Source: Candidatus Latescibacterota bacterium | GTDB lineage: Bacteria > Latescibacterota > UBA2968 > GCA-2709665 | DNA: 64,000 nt | Direction of reading: 5' to 3' | Assembly: GCA_965219455.1 (NCBI GenBank) | Contig: OZ244744.1 | Span: 384,001-448,000 of the forward strand | Shown: in pieces, positions 16,475-26,163 of the stretch | Layout: each line of letters begins with the position of its first letter | Numbering within the stretch: the first letter of the stretch is position 1 | Made by a program: the position numbers and the translations under genes | The notes under the pieces: generated by a model | The model's database searches: none | Told to the model about the DNA's origin: nothing | The model's input: the letters and a program-made list of their open reading frames with translations, nothing else

Positions 16475-18808
16475 TCAGGAACGCGGCCGGGTTTTCTCCG
16501 GATCGTAAAACGGAAACCGCACCACCCGGGCGGGGATGCGCTTCTGATGACCGTCCAGCCTTCCCACCTCCACTTCCACGCCGATCGCGGCGTACCCGGA
16601 CGCCATGCGGCATAGCGCGATATTCTTGCGCAAAATGGGTGAGCGGCTGCCGCTGGTGATCACGCCCACGCGGCCGCGCCCATCGTAGACGCCGTCGCCG
16701 GTGGCGGCCGGTTCGTTTCCGGACACCTCCAGCCCCACCAGCGCCCGTTGCGGATGCGACCGCCTTCGAATCAGCGCCTCTTTACCTATAAAATCGTCTT
16801 TCTTGCGCTTGAGCGGAACGGTGAAGCCTATACCCGCCTCAAACGGGTCCGTCTGATCGTCAAACTCACAGCCCGCGAAGACCAGACCAGACTCAATCCG
16901 CAGCATGTCCAGGGCTTCCAATCCAAGCGGTGTCAGGCCATACGGCTGTCCCGCCTCCCAAATGGCATCCCAGACCGCAGGCGCATCGTGGGGATGGCAC
17001 CATACCTCATAACCCAGTTCGCCCGTGTAACCCGTCCGGGATACGACAATTGCCGCTCCGCTGCCATCGCCAATTCGACCCACCGTAAATCGGAACCAGC
17101 CCAATTCGTCCAGTGACGGGCGGGACGGAGGCGTCCAGATGATTTCGCGCAGAATTTCCCGGCTCCTGGGGCCCTGAACGGCAAGATTGTGGAGTTGGTC
17201 GGTCGAGTTTCTGACCCATACACGCATCCCCAGGCGACCCGCCTGCTCGCGCAACCACGTACCCCCGTAATCGTCGCCGCAGATCCAGCGGAAATTCTCG
17301 GACCCCAACCGAAACAGCGTGCCGTCGTCCAGCATCCCGCCTGTTTCGTAACACATGGCGGAATAAGTCACCTGCCCCGCCGAAAGCCTGCGAACGTCGC
17401 GTGTGAGCGTGTGCTGCAACAGCGCCTCGGCGTCCGGCCCGAGAACCTCGAACTTGCGAAGCGCGGACAGGTCCATCACCACCGCCGCCTCGCGGCAGGC
17501 GTAATATTCCTCAACGACGCCCTTCCCGGTATAGCTGGCGGGCAGCCAAAAACCGCGATATTCCTCAAAATGGCGAGTCAAGGCAGAGGTGCGTTGGTGG
17601 AAGGCCGTCTCCCTCGTCAACCTCGGCTCGGCGTCTGCTGTCATCCGGTGAGCAATCCCTCTGGAAAACCGGTACCGTTCAGGGTAAACGCGGACCTGAA
17701 TCTCCGTTGGCTCCCAGCCATTGGCCGGATCGATATCGTCCGGGCACGCGGACGACAGGCAGACCAGGTCCGTTAAGGCTTTCAACAGCACGTAATCGCC
17801 CGGACGAGACCATGGCTCATCCATGAAAAGGACGTTATTTCGATCGATTCTCGTATTGTAGAAAAAATTCACCGCGGGCCAGCCACGCCGGCGCTGAATC
17901 GTATACGGGTCCAATGCCACGTTGAAGTTGTCCGTACAGTTGACGTGACCGGGATAACCCATATCCTCGTAATATTTCGCGGTGCAGGCAAGCGCAAACG
18001 TATCGTGCCGCCCTACCGTATCCCGAACGACTTCGACCAGCGGCTGCATATCCTGGTCGTAAAATTTCGAAAACAGGCCCGGACCGGGATAGGCCGCGCC
18101 CATGAGCGTCCTCGTCGTGGTCGCATCCAGCCCCCGCTCGACACCCCGCTGCAATTGCCTGGCGTCGAATGCCAGAAAATCGGAACACTGGCGACCAGCG
18201 ACGTCGATCACCTGGATGAACTCTCCCGCCTTGACCTCGTAGGCAATTGCCGACGCCCTTTCTACCTCCCGATCCAGGCGCATGTCACCCAGGGGCGCGG
18301 GCATAGGGGGGCGTTCGGGCATTTCTACACGGGAACGCCTGACCACGACTTCCAGGTCCGTGGGGGGATCCTGGGCATCGGCCCTCATCGGACCGCCGGG
18401 CGCCGCAATTACGCAAACGGCGTCCCTCTCGACGGCGAAACACGCTTCGGTGCCCGCTTTCGTCTCTCCACCGAAAACCTGCGCCGCCCGTGCGTCCGAC
18501 AGGTCGACGCCCCTCCGCCGCAGGGCAGCATCAGCCGCCTGCGCGCTTTCGTCCCCGCGCCGGAGCGCCGCCGCGAAACCCTCCATCGCGCCGTCCGCCC
18601 GGAGGCCCAGCCTCGACGGATCGTCACCCCCGTCCGGGCCGAATACGCCCAGTTCGCAACGCTGGCGCCCTTCCACGTCCACAACCGCCAGTTGATCGCC
18701 CTGTGACAGCGCCAGGGCGATCGCCCCGCCGCCCGGCACCCGGTAGCGCTCCCTGCCCGGTGACCACCTCAGCAATCCGGTTCCCGTCATTTGGACGTTT
18801 GCAGGCAT
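16475..18808 (-). CDS. tdm: Trimethylamine N-oxide demethylase (DUF1989 + GcvT-type aminomethyltransferase)
   Basis: DUF1989 region (GRQCSDF, RHDTFALAC, GHVNC, SACPDDIDPAN) fused to a GcvT domain (DLSALRKFE, SRTGYTGELGYE, LRIESG, FYDPEK); TGATG coupling to the upstream gene. Confidence 0.85.
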   Translation of the reverse strand: MPANVQMTGTGLLRWSPGRERYRVPGGGAIALALSQGDQLAVVDVEGRQRCELGVFGPDGGDDPSRLGLRADGAMEGFAAALRRGDESAQAADAALRRRGVDLSDARAAQVFGGETKAGTEACFAVERDAVCVIAAPGGPMRADAQDPPTDLEVVVRRSRVEMPERPPMPAPLGDMRLDREVERASAIAYEVKAGEFIQVIDVAGRQCSDFLAFDARQLQRGVERGLDATTTRTLMGAAYPGPGLFSKFYDQDMQPLVEVVRDTVGRHDTFALACTAKYYEDMGYPGHVNCTDNFNVALDPYTIQRRRGWPAVNFFYNTRIDRNNVLFMDEPWSRPGDYVLLKALTDLVCLSSACPDDIDPANGWEPTEIQVRVYPERYRFSRGIAHRMTADAEPRLTRETAFHQRTSALTRHFEEYRGFWLPASYTGKGVVEEYYACREAAVVMDLSALRKFEVLGPDAEALLQHTLTRDVRRLSAGQVTYSAMCYETGGMLDDGTLFRLGSENFRWICGDDYGGTWLREQAGRLGMRVWVRNSTDQLHNLAVQGPRSREILREIIWTPPSRPSLDELGWFRFTVGRIGDGSGAAIVVSRTGYTGELGYEVWCHPHDAPAVWDAIWEAGQPYGLTPLGLEALDMLRIESGLVFAGCEFDDQTDPFEAGIGFTVPLKRKKDDFIGKEALIRRRSHPQRALVGLEVSGNEPAATGDGVYDGRGRVGVITSGSRSPILRKNIALCRMASGYAAIGVEVEVGRLDGHQKRIPARVVRFPFYDPEKTRPRS

Positions 18809-20202
18809 CACCCCTCATCGGCTTCGGCCAGAAGCTGCCGCGCGAGTTCCTCCTTTTCCTTACCGTCCATCTTCCTGATTTCGTTCCTCAATAACCGTTC
18901 GTTCACGGACTGGTTCCAATAATCCAGGGAGTCAAAACCCAGCAGCACGCTCTTGCCCACAAACTGGCGGAGGACCTCGTTGGTTGGGCCCATCACCCAA
19001 CCGGCCTTACCGTCACGCAGGTATCGTTCGATCCCCAGATCGGGTTTGTACCCGGTACCGCCACAGGCATGAAGCATCTTGTCGGAGACGTTCGCCACGT
19101 TCTTTGCCGCCGTGAACTTCACCTGCCACATCCAGTGCAGCACCTGTGCCCGGGGCAGGCAGGCGAGGTCCTCGTGGATCGACCAGTCGCACTGGTTCGT
19201 CACATCGTCCATCGCCCTGGCCATCAGGTAGACAAAGGACCGGGAGGTGTTGGTATCGATCACGGCCTCGCCCACGTAATCCTGGATCGTCGGATAGTCC
19301 GCCACCCGCATACCCACGTCCGCGTGCCGTCTGGCGGTCGTGTGTCGCGTGGCGATATCGATCATCCCCAAAGAAATGCCGTTCCAGCAAGCCGATGAGC
19401 ACAACAGGAAAAACGGATCCACCGTTTCGTCGTTCGAATTCGCCCCGTCGCCCACGGGCCCGACCAGCCTGCCCTCCGGCATCGTCACGTTGTCGACCTC
19501 AAGCGTGCCGGACTGGTTCCCGCGCAGCCCCAGGCCATCCCACAGGGACGGCTCGGCTTTCACCTCGTCGGCCATCACGAGAAAACAGGACAGATTCGAA
19601 TAATCCCCCGCGAAATCCGGACTCGTCGTCTGCACGATGTACCAGTCGGCAAAACCCGCGGACGTCGTCCACGACGCCTTTTTCCGCACCTTCCAGCCGT
19701 CCGCCACCCGCTCGGCCCCGGAAGATATCGGATACCAGAAATGAGAACCCGTCTCCGGGTCCGAGTAGGATAACGTGCCTACCAGCACGTCTTCGTCGAG
19801 GCGTTTCATGAGATCCTGGAGGGTCGGGTTGTCGTGCGCCCGGAACAACGCCGCGGCCACGGCCCCGATGTGCATGGTATAACACATCGCCGTACTGGCG
19901 CACCCGTACCGCGCAAGCGTCTCCACCACCATCGCCGTACACGTATGGTTTTCCCCCAACCCTCCCCACTCCCGGGGTACGTTCAATCCGAGCAGGCCCA
20001 GCGAAGCCATCGCCTCGAAGTTTTCCCGCGGAAACACAAGGTTGCGATCGCTCTCTACCGCGTTATCCCGCAGCGTTGTCCGGCAAAGTTCGATCAGTTT
20101 CTCCTGTAGCGCCTCCTGCTCAGGTGTCAGTACCCATTGGGGGTCCCAGTCGTAGTCCATACCCCAGAACGCCTCCGGGCCCCACATCTTTGTTTTGCTC
20201 AT
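18808..20202 (-). CDS. Acyl-CoA dehydrogenase-fold flavoprotein (non-canonical; possible monooxygenase)
   Basis: GLLGLNVP.EWGGLG, SDPETGS, W.GLGLRG..S and GG.GY....IERYLRD motifs; the catalytic IYEGT Glu is absent (WVMGPT). Confidence 0.85.
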   Translation of the reverse strand: MSKTKMWGPEAFWGMDYDWDPQWVLTPEQEALQEKLIELCRTTLRDNAVESDRNLVFPRENFEAMASLGLLGLNVPREWGGLGENHTCTAMVVETLARYGCASTAMCYTMHIGAVAAALFRAHDNPTLQDLMKRLDEDVLVGTLSYSDPETGSHFWYPISSGAERVADGWKVRKKASWTTSAGFADWYIVQTTSPDFAGDYSNLSCFLVMADEVKAEPSLWDGLGLRGNQSGTLEVDNVTMPEGRLVGPVGDGANSNDETVDPFFLLCSSACWNGISLGMIDIATRHTTARRHADVGMRVADYPTIQDYVGEAVIDTNTSRSFVYLMARAMDDVTNQCDWSIHEDLACLPRAQVLHWMWQVKFTAAKNVANVSDKMLHACGGTGYKPDLGIERYLRDGKAGWVMGPTNEVLRQFVGKSVLLGFDSLDYWNQSVNERLLRNEIRKMDGKEKEELARQLLAEADEG

Positions 20203-22607: not shown

Positions 22608-23339
22608 TCAACTTTCTTTCGATGCGAGATAGAGTCCACGATCTCTCATCAATCCGTGTTTGTCGAATCTTGGCCGGAGTCCCTCATCGGCCAGAATCTC
22701 GAGAAATCGCTCGCTGTCGAACAATGCCAATTTGTGGGTGTCCCGGAAGTACCGTACGCCCTTTTTTGTGGATAGAAGAAAATGGAAGTCGAGAACGGCC
22801 AGGTTTCCGCGACGCCTGCTCACGTTGTGCCTGGAGATTCTGACACCCTCTCCTTCCATGGTGCCACCGTGGATCGATCCCGGCCGAAATGTTTTCTTCG
22901 AGTAAAAGGGCTCTATGACAAGGATGCCACCCGGTTTCAGATGTTTTGCAAAACACGCGATTGCTCTCTTCAGATTCCGGTAGGTTCTTACGTAGGCGAT
23001 TGAGCTGAACAGGCAGACGACGGCGTCGAAGCGTCGCTTCATGTCGAATAAGGTCATGTCGCGGCGAAGGAATGAGACACCAGGAATCTTTTTGCGGGCA
23101 ACCTTCAGCATTTCCGGATTCAGATCGATTCCCGTTACACGATAGTGTTCGCGCAGAAACCGGGTATGTCCCCCGGTTCCGCACGCGACATCCAACAGGG
23201 CGTTGCCTGATGACAACCGATGCGTTTGGATCAATTGATGAACCCGTTCCGCCTCGGCGCGATAGTCCTTCCACTGATACATCACGTCGTAGAACGGCGC
23301 CAGTTCAGCCCACATCTTTTCGGTTTCTTTCGGTGCCAC
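22608..23339 (-). CDS. Class I SAM-dependent methyltransferase (TylM1/DesVI-like)
   Basis: KDY.AEA, LLDVACGTG.H, FDAVVCLFSSIAY and HLKPGG motifs. Confidence 0.88.
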   Translation of the reverse strand: MAPKETEKMWAELAPFYDVMYQWKDYRAEAERVHQLIQTHRLSSGNALLDVACGTGGHTRFLREHYRVTGIDLNPEMLKVARKKIPGVSFLRRDMTLFDMKRRFDAVVCLFSSIAYVRTYRNLKRAIACFAKHLKPGGILVIEPFYSKKTFRPGSIHGGTMEGEGVRISRHNVSRRRGNLAVLDFHFLLSTKKGVRYFRDTHKLALFDSERFLEILADEGLRPRFDKHGLMRDRGLYLASKES

Positions 23340-23380: not shown

Positions 23381-24355
23381 TTACCTAGCCAGGAAATGAT
23401 ACGTGGCGCCCACATGGAACTGGTAATCGGAGGTTAGCTGGCTTTCGTTCACGTTCTGGTAAACGGGAAGCGGCAACCTCGCTTCGAGGCTCAGATTCTC
23501 CATTGCCCGTACGCCCAGCTTCGGCGCAAGATAAAGCCACGTGCCCCCGCGTTTTCGGGCTATCTTTCCATATTGGAAATAGTCGCGAGCCGTGTGAACG
23601 TGGTTCAGGCTGAGACCCGCAATAAACATGTCTCCATGCATATATTCCATTGAAAAGATGCCCTGAAACTCGTTCCCGTATTTGTAGCCATATACATTCT
23701 CGCGGGAAATAATGCGTGTGAAAAGCATACCGGAGAAAAACAGGTTGTCGAAGGCGCGCGACAGACTAACGGAGAAGATGGGGTCCATGCTGCCGGAACC
23801 CACCTGCAGCAAGTCGGCGAACCGCTGGCCATACTCATCGACCGCATGGGTCGACCCGTTCGCGAGCTTGACGCCTGCCGAAAAAAGCAGCCCAGGCAAT
23901 GCTTCCGGCAGAGGCGGAGCAAAGTTCAACATCAGGACAACGTCGCCGAGACCGGCGGCACTCCGGACATACTCGCCGCCCAGATACTGGTTGTCGTACT
24001 GACCCGGAAGAAGAAATTTGTCGTTGGTTATGGAACGAAACGGAAGAACAACGGCAGCTCCGAACCATTCGTTGACACCATAACTTGCGAACACCGACAC
24101 CGTTGAAATGCTGGTCACTTCCTGGTTGACGTTGGGGATCGGCCCTGTACCGAACATCGCATCGCCCAGAAACTCATGCTCGTAGTTCACGCTCAGAACG
24201 AAAAGATCCTGGGTAATCAGACTGCCCTGGAGCATTCTCCCGCCCGGGAGCACGGGACGACGTCAACTCACGCCTGGTTGCGCCGGCACAGATTTGTTTC
24301 CCGGAACCAGGTGGGTAAAAAGGACCAACGCCAAAACCGGTAAAACCCGTTTCAT
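23381..24355 (-). CDS. Putative selenoprotein outer-membrane beta-barrel (MetA-pathway/transporter-like), in-frame TGA at codon 31
   Basis: GAGGAG RBS 8 nt before ATG 24355. Signal peptide MKRVLPVLALVLFTHLVPGNKSVPA, then QPGVS-TGA(24265-24263)-RRPVLPGG, in frame with the 290-aa ORF (GLGDV, QVGSGS.D, Y.YGNE, C-terminal aromatic strand). Confidence 0.7.
24237..24250 (-). promoter_or_regulatory. SECIS-like hairpin
   Basis: CTCCC-GGGC-GGGAG; the loop begins 17 nt after the in-frame TGA. Confidence 0.55.
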
Positions 24356-24397
24356 CGTCCACGCTCCTCAAGCATTGTGGTTGGCGTTCAATAAAAA

Positions 24398-24901
24398 CTA
24401 GCCCTTCAATGCCTTATCCAGCAATTTTCTGAATTTTCGAAAGGAAGCGTACCCGGAAAATAGGACCTCCCCCCGGCCGTCTACGATCACCACGGTGGGT
24501 GTAAGCCGGGTCTCGAAGGCCTCGAACACTCGCCCATCCGTATCGATATAGCTGTGCAGAGATTCTTTCCTGCCGGCAAAATAGGTCTGGATCTCCTCCG
24601 CGCTGTTCTTCCACGCGATGCCGAAGACCTGGACCTTCTCTCCGAATTTCTCCCTTAACTTGAAGACATGCTTCATATCCTTCTTACATGTCGTGCACCA
24701 GGTGGCCCACAGATAAATGAAGGATGTCTTTCCTTCGCAAACCTCCGCCAGACTCAACGTATCACCCTCGAGCGTGACGACCTGCACCAGAGGCAACGGA
24801 TTGGAATTTTCGTCATTTGCGAACCCGATATCGGGGAAACAGAAGATAAGGCCCGCCCCCAGCATAACACCGGTGATCCAGACCCGTTTCGTCCCGCCCA
24901 T
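24398..24901 (-). CDS. TlpA/ResA-type exported thiol-disulfide oxidoreductase
   Basis: AAGGGAG RBS; signal peptide; LWATWCTTC and TPTVVIVD motifs. Confidence 0.85.
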   Translation of the reverse strand: MGGTKRVWITGVMLGAGLIFCFPDIGFANDENSNPLPLVQVVTLEGDTLSLAEVCEGKTSFIYLWATWCTTCKKDMKHVFKLREKFGEKVQVFGIAWKNSAEEIQTYFAGRKESLHSYIDTDGRVFEAFETRLTPTVVIVDGRGEVLFSGYASFRKFRKLLDKALKG

Positions 24902-24966: not shown

Positions 24967-26163
24967 TCACCTTTTGACGATTTCCTTGTACACCACGCGA
25001 ATCCGATGGTTGAACGTATCGGCGATGTACAGATTCTCGTCCTGATCGAGCGCGACCCCATAGGGATTCCTGAGTTTTCCCCATCGGGGATGGTCGCTGT
25101 CGCCCTTGAAACCCGGCTCACCACACCGGCCGGCCAGGGTGGTAATGATACCGCCGGTATCCACCTTGCGGATGCAATGGTTACCGGTATCGGCAATGAA
25201 CAGGTTTCCCTCCGCATCGACGACCACGTCGCTGGGGCGCGAAAGGTTGGCCTCGGTCGCCGGTCCGCCATCTCCCGAATACGTTCCGGCAGTCGGGCCG
25301 ATACTGCCGCCGCCGGCCACCGTGCTGACCCTGCCGTTGGTGTCCACCATGCGGATGCGATTGTTGAACGTATCTGCGATATAGAGGTTGCCCCGGATAT
25401 CCAGGGCAATCCGGCCGGCGGGCTGCGCCGCGTCTCCCGTCGGCGCATAGAGGTCGGCCAGAATGGCAGGGCCACCGTCGCCGGCAAGTCCTTCCCGTCC
25501 GGTTCCCGCAATCGTCGAGATCAAACCGTTCAAATCCACCATACGAATGCGAAGGTTGCCCTGATCCGAGATATACATACGGCCGGATTCGTCGAAGGCC
25601 GTGGAACTCGGAAGATTCAACGAGGCCTCGAGAGCGGGGCCGCCGTCGCCCCCGAAACCGCGTTCGCCCCGGCCGGCGATGGGTTCGACGCGGCCCGTGG
25701 TGAAATCATACCTCAGGATCCTGGAATTCTGCCAGGCCGAAAGGATCAGCCGTCCCTGAGGATCGAATGAAATATGGGTCGGGTGGTCGATGCCCACCCG
25801 CAGCGCCGGACCCGCAGGCGCATCGCCCGGTTCGCCGTTGCCGATAAGAGGACGGACGACTCCGTTGTGGATCTCAAGAACGCGATTGTTGTTCCAATCC
25901 AGAATGTACGTCCGCCCGTCGGGACCGACAGTCATATCCTGGGGAAAATACAGGTGCGTATCCAGAGGACCCAATCCCGTGGCGTTCCTGCCTGCATCTC
26001 CGGTGCCGGCGAGGGTGATCATGATCCCGTAGGGCAACCCCGGGTACTCTTCGTACAGATCATCGTCCACGGTGGGCGGCGTTTTGCCGCAGTCAGCCAC
26101 AGAGAGGAGCAGGCCGAACGCAAGCAGGTACCGCGCCCACACATGTTCGAGGATTCTCTTCAT
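24967..26163 (-). CDS. NHL-repeat (teneurin-like) exported protein, possible lipoprotein
   Basis: Repeated GNLYIADT.N.RIR and GF.GDGGPA..A.L..P units; N-terminal hydrophobic stretch followed by Cys. Confidence 0.85.
   Translation of the reverse strand: MKRILEHVWARYLLAFGLLLSVADCGKTPPTVDDDLYEEYPGLPYGIMITLAGTGDAGRNATGLGPLDTHLYFPQDMTVGPDGRTYILDWNNNRVLEIHNGVVRPLIGNGEPGDAPAGPALRVGIDHPTHISFDPQGRLILSAWQNSRILRYDFTTGRVEPIAGRGERGFGGDGGPALEASLNLPSSTAFDESGRMYISDQGNLRIRMVDLNGLISTIAGTGREGLAGDGGPAILADLYAPTGDAAQPAGRIALDIRGNLYIADTFNNRIRMVDTNGRVSTVAGGGSIGPTAGTYSGDGGPATEANLSRPSDVVVDAEGNLFIADTGNHCIRKVDTGGIITTLAGRCGEPGFKGDSDHPRWGKLRNPYGVALDQDENLYIADTFNHRIRVVYKEIVKR

Follow-up and report, generated by a model that had tools for sequence, protein, structure and literature searches.

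A predicted selenocysteine-containing outer-membrane barrel, apparently of an undescribed selenoprotein family, in Latescibacterota and several mostly marine bacterial phyla

A 64,000-nucleotide stretch from the genome of a Candidatus Latescibacterota bacterium (assembly GCA_965219455.1, contig OZ244744.1, positions 384,001 to 448,000; hereafter "the window", in whose numbering positions are given unless a genome handle precedes them) carries on its minus strand, at 23381..24355, what is probably one intact gene for an outer-membrane channel protein containing selenocysteine (Sec; U in the motifs below) and working with an exported thioredoxin-fold partner; we put the probability of this reading at about 80%. 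Under genetic code table 11 only an open reading frame (ORF) of 290 aa is seen (23381..24253, minus strand), which starts MLPGGRMLQG and, as a first-pass annotation made from the letters and ORF translations had noted, lacks a signal peptide. Reading through the TGA at 24265-24263 carries the frame to an ATG at 24355 preceded by GAGGAG, both located where that annotation had put them, and gives the extended N-terminus MKRVLPVLALVLFTHLVPGNKSVPA followed, after the predicted cleavage point, by QPGVS-U-RRPVLPGG; the signal peptide and the QPGVS-U-RRP start that it had read are thus present. The features of the gene are as follows.

23381..24355, minus strand: complete predicted selenoprotein gene, 324 codons plus a TAA stop, with the frame read through one TGA; homologues were found.
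24364..24369, minus strand: Shine-Dalgarno sequence GAGGAG, 8 nucleotides (nt) 5' of the start codon, read in the sequence.
24353..24355, minus strand: ATG start of the full-length gene, kept in 15/15 orthologues, 30 codons before the TGA.
24281..24355, minus strand: signal peptide (codons 1-25), by inspection, with a predicted signal peptidase I site between VPA and QPG.
24263..24265, minus strand: in-frame TGA, predicted Sec codon 31 and mature residue +6, conserved in all close homologue loci.
24206..24280, minus strand: mature N-terminal segment (residues 26-50) with the Sec and RRPxLP, presumed from conservation and model alignment to be a lumen or plug segment.
24237..24250, minus strand: mini-hairpin CUCCC-GGGC-GGGAG, beginning 12 nt after the UGA, from RNAalifold, pair counts and likeness to SelD.
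23384..24205, minus strand: 12-stranded beta-barrel body (residues 51-324), from AlphaFold2, Foldseek and VIA-align.

By inspection, the signal peptide has an n-region with K/R, a hydrophobic core and small residues at -3 and -1; the signal peptides of homologues have diverged in sequence and keep this pattern and an AxA cleavage site followed by Q. Because cleavage is predicted between VPA and Q, that is after Ala25, the TGA at codon 31 becomes residue +6 of the mature chain, in agreement with the first-pass estimate. Two of the 15 orthologues also have an earlier in-frame ATG, and in 15 paralogues the ATG lies 24-26 codons before the TGA. Over the 30 codons before the TGA, the numbers of variable columns at codon positions 1, 2 and 3 in the 15 orthologues were 17, 13 and 26 (0, 2 and 6 over the last eight codons), and this pattern therefore indicates that the upstream stretch is under protein-level selection in this frame. 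Comparison of the orthologues also places the barrel body under purifying selection. A promoter and terminator scan returned nothing above shuffles. In four metatranscriptome runs labelled sponge metagenome the gene is covered by short contigs that are at least 99% identical to it. One of these RNA-library contigs (24147-24376) covers the leader together with the start codon and the TGA, with at least 31 letters on either side of the TGA, and hints at transcription there; a second follows the gene to 19 nt past the TGA and then continues into unlike sequence. The bridging contig differs from the genome by C>A (plus strand) at 24307, which changes Val17 of the signal peptide to Phe and is probably strain variation.

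One line of evidence for the Sec assignment is the conservation of the TGA. A six-frame search of 168 genomes of the phylum gave 50 match rows in 33 genomes, and 34 of these rows contain exactly one TGA, always at the same place. The 34 rows comprise this genome and all 14 other genomes of the genus, each with an orthologue and a paralogue, two genomes of a second genus, and G008, which belongs to another family; identity to the window protein is 85-94% for the orthologues, ∼53% for the paralogue and 28% for G008. The 16 rows without a TGA consist of distant matches, whose aligned parts are no more than 38% identical and whose E values are no better than 4e-14, and of a C-terminal fragment. 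Across the phylum the motif reads AQ(G/P)GVS-U-RRPVLPGG, with the variant AWAVA-U-RRPTLPGE in G008, and S-U-RRPxLPGG is found in both the orthologue and the paralogue of 14/14 same-genus genomes. A wider scan, with one genome per species over all phyla, added 17 loci that were read; AQGG[VI][SN]-U-RRPxLPGG occurs in 15 of them, and the other two (24-25% identity) have SCGSxxCF, with Cys instead of the TGA. The titles of the carrier records name Latescibacterota, KSB1, Calditrichaceae, Fidelibacterota, Marinimicrobia/Neomarinimicrobiota and "Gemmatimonadota". Twenty-three loci were fetched from JGI metagenome contigs; leaving aside L127, which lacks the N-terminal part, the TGA is present in 22/22 (21 with URRP, one with K-U-ASPNLPVGG). 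Overall, the TGA is kept in 71/71 homologue loci of at least 28% identity whose N-terminus could be read (34 from the phylum, 15 from other phyla and 22 from metagenomes), a pattern that, judged from these sequence comparisons, is far beyond chance. In the protein database, 26/29 homologues are called from just after the TGA, and the exported form is therefore invisible in annotation. The first-pass annotation had counted this barrel as the second hidden one of its kind; two read-through scans and a hairpin scan of the window, together with a PF13557 search over the genome, revealed no other hidden barrel in the window, and the sole paralogue lies 5.29 Mb away. That paralogue (L038, G000:C1:5700575-5701540, outside the window) has the same S-U-RRPVLPGG motif and the hairpin.

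The hairpin CTCCC-GGGC-GGGAG that the first-pass annotation reported, with its loop 17 nt downstream of the TGA, was recovered at that place (CTCCC 24250-24246, GGGC 24245-24242, GGGAG 24241-24237). From an alignment of 43 distinct contexts, RNAalifold predicts exactly this 5-bp helix; 99.0% of cells are paired, 0/500 shuffles reach the pairing value or the covariation score, and slid registers pair at most 79.5% of cells. The third pair joins the third positions of a Leu codon and of the second Gly codon, both synonymous, and in 47 distinct contexts it occurs as C-G (31), U-A (7), U-G (4), A-U (4) and G-C (1), with zero mismatches and with all four Watson-Crick pair types represented. Only AGY and AGA codons close the stem: Ser after GG is encoded by AGY in 35/35 contexts, compared with 32% of Ser codons genome-wide, and Arg after GG by AGA in 8/8 contexts, compared with 6% of Arg codons genome-wide. 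SelD of this genome is itself a bona fide selenoprotein; its gene has TGA, 12 nt and AGUCC-GGUC-GGACU, and so shares spacing, stem length and loop type (GGNC) with the barrel gene. On this comparative evidence the hairpin behaves as a Sec insertion sequence (SECIS) and is under RNA-level constraint. Like the standard bacterial SECIS of the Escherichia coli fdhF type, it lies inside the coding sequence at a fixed short distance after the UGA and has G residues in the apical loop; unlike that element, it is very small (5 bp with a 4-nt loop) and overlaps the conserved peptide LPGG. The SelB-binding loop of Moorella is of the GGUC type. A search of Rfam gave no match to a SECIS model, only a chance hit to a long noncoding RNA (E 6.3). 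A strict scan of the genome for this hairpin geometry with an open frame on both sides returned eight sites in 5.8 Mb, two of which are the barrels. The other six (G000:C1 634525, 1540741, 2155904, 3000515 and 3312573 on the plus strand and 888725 on the minus strand) combine an in-frame TGA, a spacing of 11-13 nt, a 5-bp hairpin and an NGGN loop, and one of them reads ...QTVAK-U-PGGVSQARIYPG; each could mark a further selenoprotein gene or have arisen by chance.

The machinery for Sec, on whose presence the first-pass annotation had made its proposal depend, is in the genome. The genes for SelA (C1:4374337-4375434; 481 bits), for SelB (its wing domain found beside selA, the gene ending at 4377395) and for tRNA-Sec (anticodon tca, 4377535-4377632) form one cluster at G000:C1:4374337-4377632 (L001, L054), and selD (L055, G000:C1:3407174-3408097) itself contains a TGA, within TCG-U-AAK. 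SelA was found in 5/5 tested carrier genomes of other lineages and in 131/168 genomes of the phylum, including 14/14 of the genus; the single carrier in which it was not found, G044, is 80% complete. Since TGA is the normal stop for 839/1668 long ORFs of this genome, and terminates the same barrel gene in 6/13 loci of other phyla, it has not been reassigned.

An AlphaFold2 model, the check that had been proposed for the barrel, was built from 16 Sec-type sequences and has ∼12 strands, with a predicted local distance difference test score (pLDDT) of 83.1 and a predicted template modelling score of 0.79. Foldseek matched it to FapF (E 4e-12) and to 4rl8 (E 2.8e-11), the structure of Pput2725, and VIA-align gave Z 26.4 for 4rl8 (root-mean-square deviation 2.2 Å over 255 residues) and Z 24.0 for FapF; PcoB, a 12-stranded copper channel, is a further structural neighbor (VIA-align Z 13). 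At the sequence level, 4071 of 1.84 billion representatives were picked up as relatives in a profile search at E up to 0.001, and a profile built from 66 of them matched FapF (E 1.4e-13) and Pput2725 (E 0.0021) among solved structures; the profile of the close family, run against PDB sequences, gave only a chance hit to RadA (E 1). The PF13557 model is passed by the ∼53%-identical paralogue (26.6 bits, cut-off 22) and matched by 6/24 and 19/66 relatives, and since the window protein (P0001) itself falls below the gathering threshold the barrel is filed as a divergent PF13557/COG4313 relative. The first-pass comparison of the body to MetA-pathway or transporter barrels, made from GLGDV and Q.GSGS.D, agrees with these profile and structure matches to COG4313 channels: both motifs are present, and GLGDV and QVGSGSMD fall on invariant or nearly invariant columns of the family (G135, D138, Q184, G186, G188 and D191). 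On the strength of the model and the profiles, the barrel is placed in the FapF/COG4313 structural superfamily of 12-stranded outer-membrane barrels.

With FapF (PDB 5o65) and Pput2725 (PDB 4rl8) the protein shares the 12-stranded barrel, but Sec and the N-terminal Cys motif are both absent from the two solved proteins, and the N-domain of FapF is a long coiled coil; the word "cysteine" is absent from the text of the Pput2725 paper (PMC4493636). As far as the accessible parts of PMC5557850 and PMC4493636 describe them, the FapF and Pput2725 systems also differ in that redoxin and propeller-lipoprotein partners are not part of them. The same parts of these papers place the segment before strand 1 of both solved barrels in the lumen, on the periplasmic side, and in what is accessible of PMC4493636 residues 1-14 of Pput2725 fill the lumen. 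Model residues 38-50 align with these residues 1-14, at a pLDDT of only 44-72, and the VIA-align rows for autotransporters begin at model residues 25-30. From the model, the Sec at mature +6 would thus lie on the lumen or plug segment before strand 1, its depth being left unassigned.

Relatives of the barrel have paired cysteines just after the signal peptide. In the best 149 representatives, of which 125 are at least 290 aa long, 98 of these 125 carry an N-terminal CC (51), Cx4C (36) or CxC (11). Across 55 aligned barrels of the Cys type the first Cys never varies and is followed, at a distance of six residues, by a nearly invariant Pro (C-x5-P), and in 16 Sec-type sequences U31, P34, L36 and P37 are invariant. 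When the two sets were aligned with hhalign (probability 100, E 7.7e-53), U31 was matched to the invariant Cys and P37 to the conserved Pro. Sec-type sequences fall into three clades of a maximum-likelihood tree (34 rows, midpoint root only), and those of the Cys type group together in a separate one (support 100/98). Lipoprotein-type processing of the N-terminal Cys motifs was considered and rejected, as the residues at -3 to -1 fit signal peptidase I (A-x-A) and not a lipobox.

The genes that adjoin the barrel gene in the window are all on the minus strand.

24398..24901, minus strand: exported TlpA-like thiol:disulfide oxidoreductase (redoxin), 42 nt upstream of the barrel gene; Pfam Redoxin/AhpC-TSA/Thioredoxin_2.
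24686..24697, minus strand: redoxin active site CTTC (WATWCxxC), with C69 and C72 invariant in 10/10 aligned partner redoxins.
24967..26163, minus strand: NHL-repeat beta-propeller protein, upstream of the redoxin; Pfam NHL/TEN_NHL.
22608-23339, minus strand: S-adenosylmethionine-dependent methyltransferase, 41 nt downstream of the barrel gene, from the gene order of the window.

The redoxin has a thioredoxin fold with CxxC and, judged by inspection, an export signal, and in all ten partner redoxins the WCxxC is invariant and a TPT cis-Pro loop is present. The order NHL protein, redoxin, barrel recurs in the second genus (L023), and a redoxin lies directly upstream of the barrel in 8/10 loci of other phyla. 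Directly downstream of the barrel, 10/10 other-phylum loci encode a propeller of 350-410 aa with an invariant lipobox Cys and NHL-like LYLADYGNN repeats, to which the NHL protein of the window shows similarity at the level of the repeats only. The paralogue L038 has a 358-aa propeller lipoprotein 11 nt downstream and lacks an upstream redoxin; both barrel copies recur in each of the 14 other genomes of the genus. A protein with FG-GAP/ASPIC domains and a type IX secretion system (T9SS) sorting domain adjoins the barrel in 8/10 other-phylum loci, and a ninth (L098) has such a protein with no hit to the sorting domain. The loci flanked by FG-GAP/ASPIC-UnbV genes include L073, L079, L092, L096, L097, L101 and L098, from KSB1, Fidelibacterota and Marinimicrobia records. 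A covalent Se-S link between the barrel and the propeller lipoprotein was also considered and rejected, the only invariant Cys of the propeller being that of the lipobox. In two of the listed loci of the genus (L009, L016) the barrel is likewise followed by an ORF as long as the methyltransferase gene, and an acetamidase-like gene takes its place in L023. Elsewhere in the window, a 778-aa ORF with DUF1989 and aminomethyltransferase (GCV_T) domains (16475-18811, minus strand) adjoins flavin reductase, acyl-CoA dehydrogenase-like and glutamate-synthase-like genes.

In the subfamily with the K-U-ASP motif, a C-terminal thioredoxin domain is fused to the barrel in 7/7 members tested (L126 and six database relatives). 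Barrels with an even number of strands have both ends facing the periplasm, which would put the CxxC of the fused domain and the N-terminal Sec together on one side of the membrane. In the fusion at L126:1498-2820 the thioredoxin motif is LCHTC, and a hairpin CUCCC-AGUU-GGGGG lies 12 nt after the TGA; the database relatives P0039, P0040, P0051, P0054, P0060 and P0083 lack their N-termini, as expected if they too were cut at a TGA. The partner encoded next to the barrel resembles the TlpA/ResA reductases in its Redoxin/AhpC-TSA fold, export signal, WCxxC and cis-Pro TPT, and in being genetically dedicated to one client. The known clients of TlpA and ResA are cytochrome c apoprotein and copper-site proteins; the presumed client here, by contrast, is a selenol on an outer-membrane barrel. 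Within the phylum, some Cys-type relatives whose signal peptide is followed by QTCSCAAAP or ASCGTSSCPLD have a DUF3179 gene (L026, L030) or a di-haem cytochrome c peroxidase/MauG gene (L033, L036) directly downstream, and relatives of the SCGT type (L033, L036, L028, L031) have His-rich loops. The DUF3179 family has known Sec members (Table 1 of PMC13188914).

These observations suggest the following route from gene to function. Translation would start at ATG 24355, and SelB and Sec-tRNA would decode UGA31, guided by the 14-nt hairpin 12 nt downstream. The secretory (Sec) translocon would export the chain and signal peptidase would cut after Ala25, so that the mature chain would begin QPGVS-U-RRPVLPGG and the remainder would fold as a 12-stranded FapF/COG4313-type barrel. 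Sec would take the column of the invariant first Cys of the C-x5-P motif, on a segment entering the lumen from the periplasm. Its selenol would pair with a dedicated thioredoxin-fold protein (the product of the TlpA-like WCxxC gene here, the fused domain in one subfamily), and this redoxin partner would keep the selenol reduced or resolve its adducts. The first-pass annotation had suggested that Sec could act as a redox or metal-binding residue, and this putative role of Sec31 is backed by the conserved TlpA-like partner gene and by the barrel-thioredoxin fusions; gene linkage likewise supports a putative selenol/dithiol couple with the TlpA-like protein. That the site serves as a redox-active nucleophile or gate in the channel is a tentative reading, somewhat short of even odds; roles beyond this one and beyond the metal ligand and surface relay considered below share a small remainder. 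The Arg pair that follows Sec may bind an anion or may, by analogy with the salt bridges of FapF described in the accessible part of PMC5557850, pin the segment to acidic residues of the barrel.

The insertion of Sec at codon 31 is itself a prediction from comparative data, and a number of observations weigh against it or against other parts of the reading proposed here. The hairpin is short and is partly dictated by the L-P-G-G codons, the local fold of the single sequence is no more stable than shuffles (z 0.14), and the minimum-energy fold of this sequence takes a shifted, competing register; because single-sequence folding is not distinctive, the case for the hairpin rests on cross-sequence comparison. 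DNA present in the library could be the source of the RNA contig across the TGA. Neither Pfam nor NCBIfam has a model that the window protein matches at E up to 1, and confidence in the structural model is low where the Sec sits (pLDDT 44, 63 and 72 for residues 21-30, 31-40 and 41-50, respectively). No redoxin lies beside the paralogue, nor in 2/10 other-phylum loci. The alignment of Sec with Cys varies with the method: MAFFT alignments are inconsistent, one putting U on the second Cys of P0030 and another three columns after the invariant Cys, and the placement on that Cys comes solely from the profile-profile alignment and the shared spacing to the Pro six residues on. The pairing of Cys and TGA at codon 31 that the first-pass annotation had asked about stands at the level of the superfamily, by hhalign; among close homologues, the two full-length non-Sec sequences (P0016 and P0019) have Ser at the Sec position. 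Non-Sec relatives of the L025/G008 branch have Ala, Glu or Pro there (by eye from alignments). Because such replacements occur with the RRP motif kept, the Sec residue would appear to be dispensable, and the Arg-Arg after it is more conserved than Sec itself. The Ser homologues nest within the URRP Sec clade (support 100/99), so Ser is best read as a secondary replacement.

Alternative explanations differ in whether UGA31 is translated as Sec at all and in what the Sec would do. A lone in-frame stop in an otherwise intact gene is what a pseudogene or a sequencing error would produce, but the same TGA occurs in 47 distinct contexts, in independent assemblies and in at least five phyla, and the body remains under purifying selection; this explanation is refuted by the comparative data and retains next to no weight. 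It is also extremely improbable that the TGA is a true stop, which would leave a 30-residue leader peptide and a barrel translated separately from GTG 24253 or ATG 24235. Gene callers make that choice in databases generally, as in the 26/29 homologues started just after the TGA, and for P0010 and P0023 the called start is the codon that aligns with the GTG; however, an outer-membrane barrel without a signal peptide would not be exportable, the frame, the length and the AQGGVS motif are conserved up to the TGA, no Shine-Dalgarno-like purine run is seen before the internal starts, and the hairpin would overlie them. Hairpin-stimulated readthrough of the UGA, in which a near-cognate tRNA for Trp, Cys or Arg takes the place of selenocysteine, would account for the database homologue P0047 (GVSWRRPILPGG), which is printed with Trp at the Sec position, although that Trp could be a TGA called under table 4 (a guess). 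The agreement of the hairpin with the SelD element in spacing, stem length and GGNC-type loop, and the presence of SelA in every tested carrier genome except the 80%-complete G044, make such readthrough very improbable.

If Sec is inserted, the UGA might still serve mainly as a selenium-dependent translational gate, with the chemistry of the residue unimportant. The position of the site at the very start of the mature chain would suit a gate, as would the Ser, Ala, Glu or Pro of non-Sec relatives that keep the flanking RRPxLP, but Sec aligns with an invariant Cys of the superfamily, a thiol-redox partner is linked or even fused to the barrel across phyla, and the UGA is kept in three deep clades, all of which renders this explanation improbable. 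A more substantial contender, although still unlikely, keeps the protein as a real selenoprotein but gives its selenol no role beyond binding a soft metal such as Cu(I), Zn or Hg; the channel would then take up or expel metal, and the TlpA-like protein would do no more than maintain the ligand in its reduced state until metallation. TlpA acts in this way for ScoI and CoxB. Paired cysteines (CC, CxC or Cx4C) are typical metal sites, distant Cys-type relatives (L028, L031, L033, L036) have the His-rich loops beside SCGTxSCP, and the structural neighbor PcoB, also of 12 strands (Z 13), is a copper channel; several transporter selenoproteins have been implicated in metal or metalloid handling, in the accessible part of PMC13188914. 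Against a metal ligand, the Sec-type proteins have a single chalcogen with no Cys/His cluster near it, the 12 neighborhoods examined contain no linked gene for a metal transporter, chaperone or regulator, and Ser, Ala and Glu replacements occur.

Within the reading of the protein as a redox-active selenoprotein, a further possibility is that the site relays reducing equivalents or chalcogen to the cell surface, which we regard as rather unlikely. The barrel would then be an outer-membrane counterpart of DsbD, that is, a trans-membrane chalcogen relay, a proposal that is equally doubtful. The TlpA-like protein or the fused thioredoxin would reduce the selenol on a mobile N-terminal segment threading the pore, and the acceptor at the surface would be the propeller lipoprotein, the T9SS-secreted FG-GAP protein, or an external disulfide, polysulfide or selenium compound. 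Were this true, the Cys-type relatives beside DUF3179 and di-haem peroxidase genes would be thiol versions of the same relay, and barrels of the "MetA-pathway-like" kind, in their thousands, would serve as conduits for redox equivalents instead of passive channels.

The family appears to be an undescribed selenoprotein family of several mostly marine bacterial phyla. NCBIfam (June 2026) has no model for it; P0001 matched none at E up to 1, and the 66 relatives gave one unrelated weak hit. A 2026 review lists 119 selenoprotein families (Table 1 of PMC13188914), two of which are outer-membrane barrels and none of which is a FapF/COG4313-type barrel; the two are the GSU2204 family (MtrB/PioB-type, NF041027) and a TonB-dependent receptor with an FCYXU motif (NF049945) (PMC13188914). 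Neither NF041027 nor NF049945, nor any other NCBIfam selenoprotein model, was matched by P0001 or by 65 relatives. The present protein shares with these two that all are predicted Sec-containing bacterial outer-membrane beta-barrels; it differs in that they belong to other barrel families and in that here Sec stands alone, with no CxxU or UxxC, at mature +6. Both of those barrel families are also much larger than the present barrel. A full-text literature search found nothing on the family, within texts whose coverage leaves room for its inclusion in the supplementary candidate lists of selenoproteome surveys.

The finding adds to the known selenoproteins a well-supported family overlooked by current annotation, carried by Latescibacterota, KSB1, Calditrichota-like bacteria, Fidelibacterota and Marinimicrobia, some of which are abundant marine and sponge-associated groups. 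Selenium chemistry would thereby be located at, or inside, a pore of the outer membrane, and few known selenoproteins share such a location. The pairing of Sec with Cys also exposes a previously unrecognised N-terminal motif of paired cysteines in a very large FapF/COG4313-like branch whose gene partners are periplasmic redox proteins, and these channels may be redox-active or redox-gated. The conserved three-gene module of redoxin, Sec barrel and propeller lipoprotein offers a defined system for this redox-channel idea.

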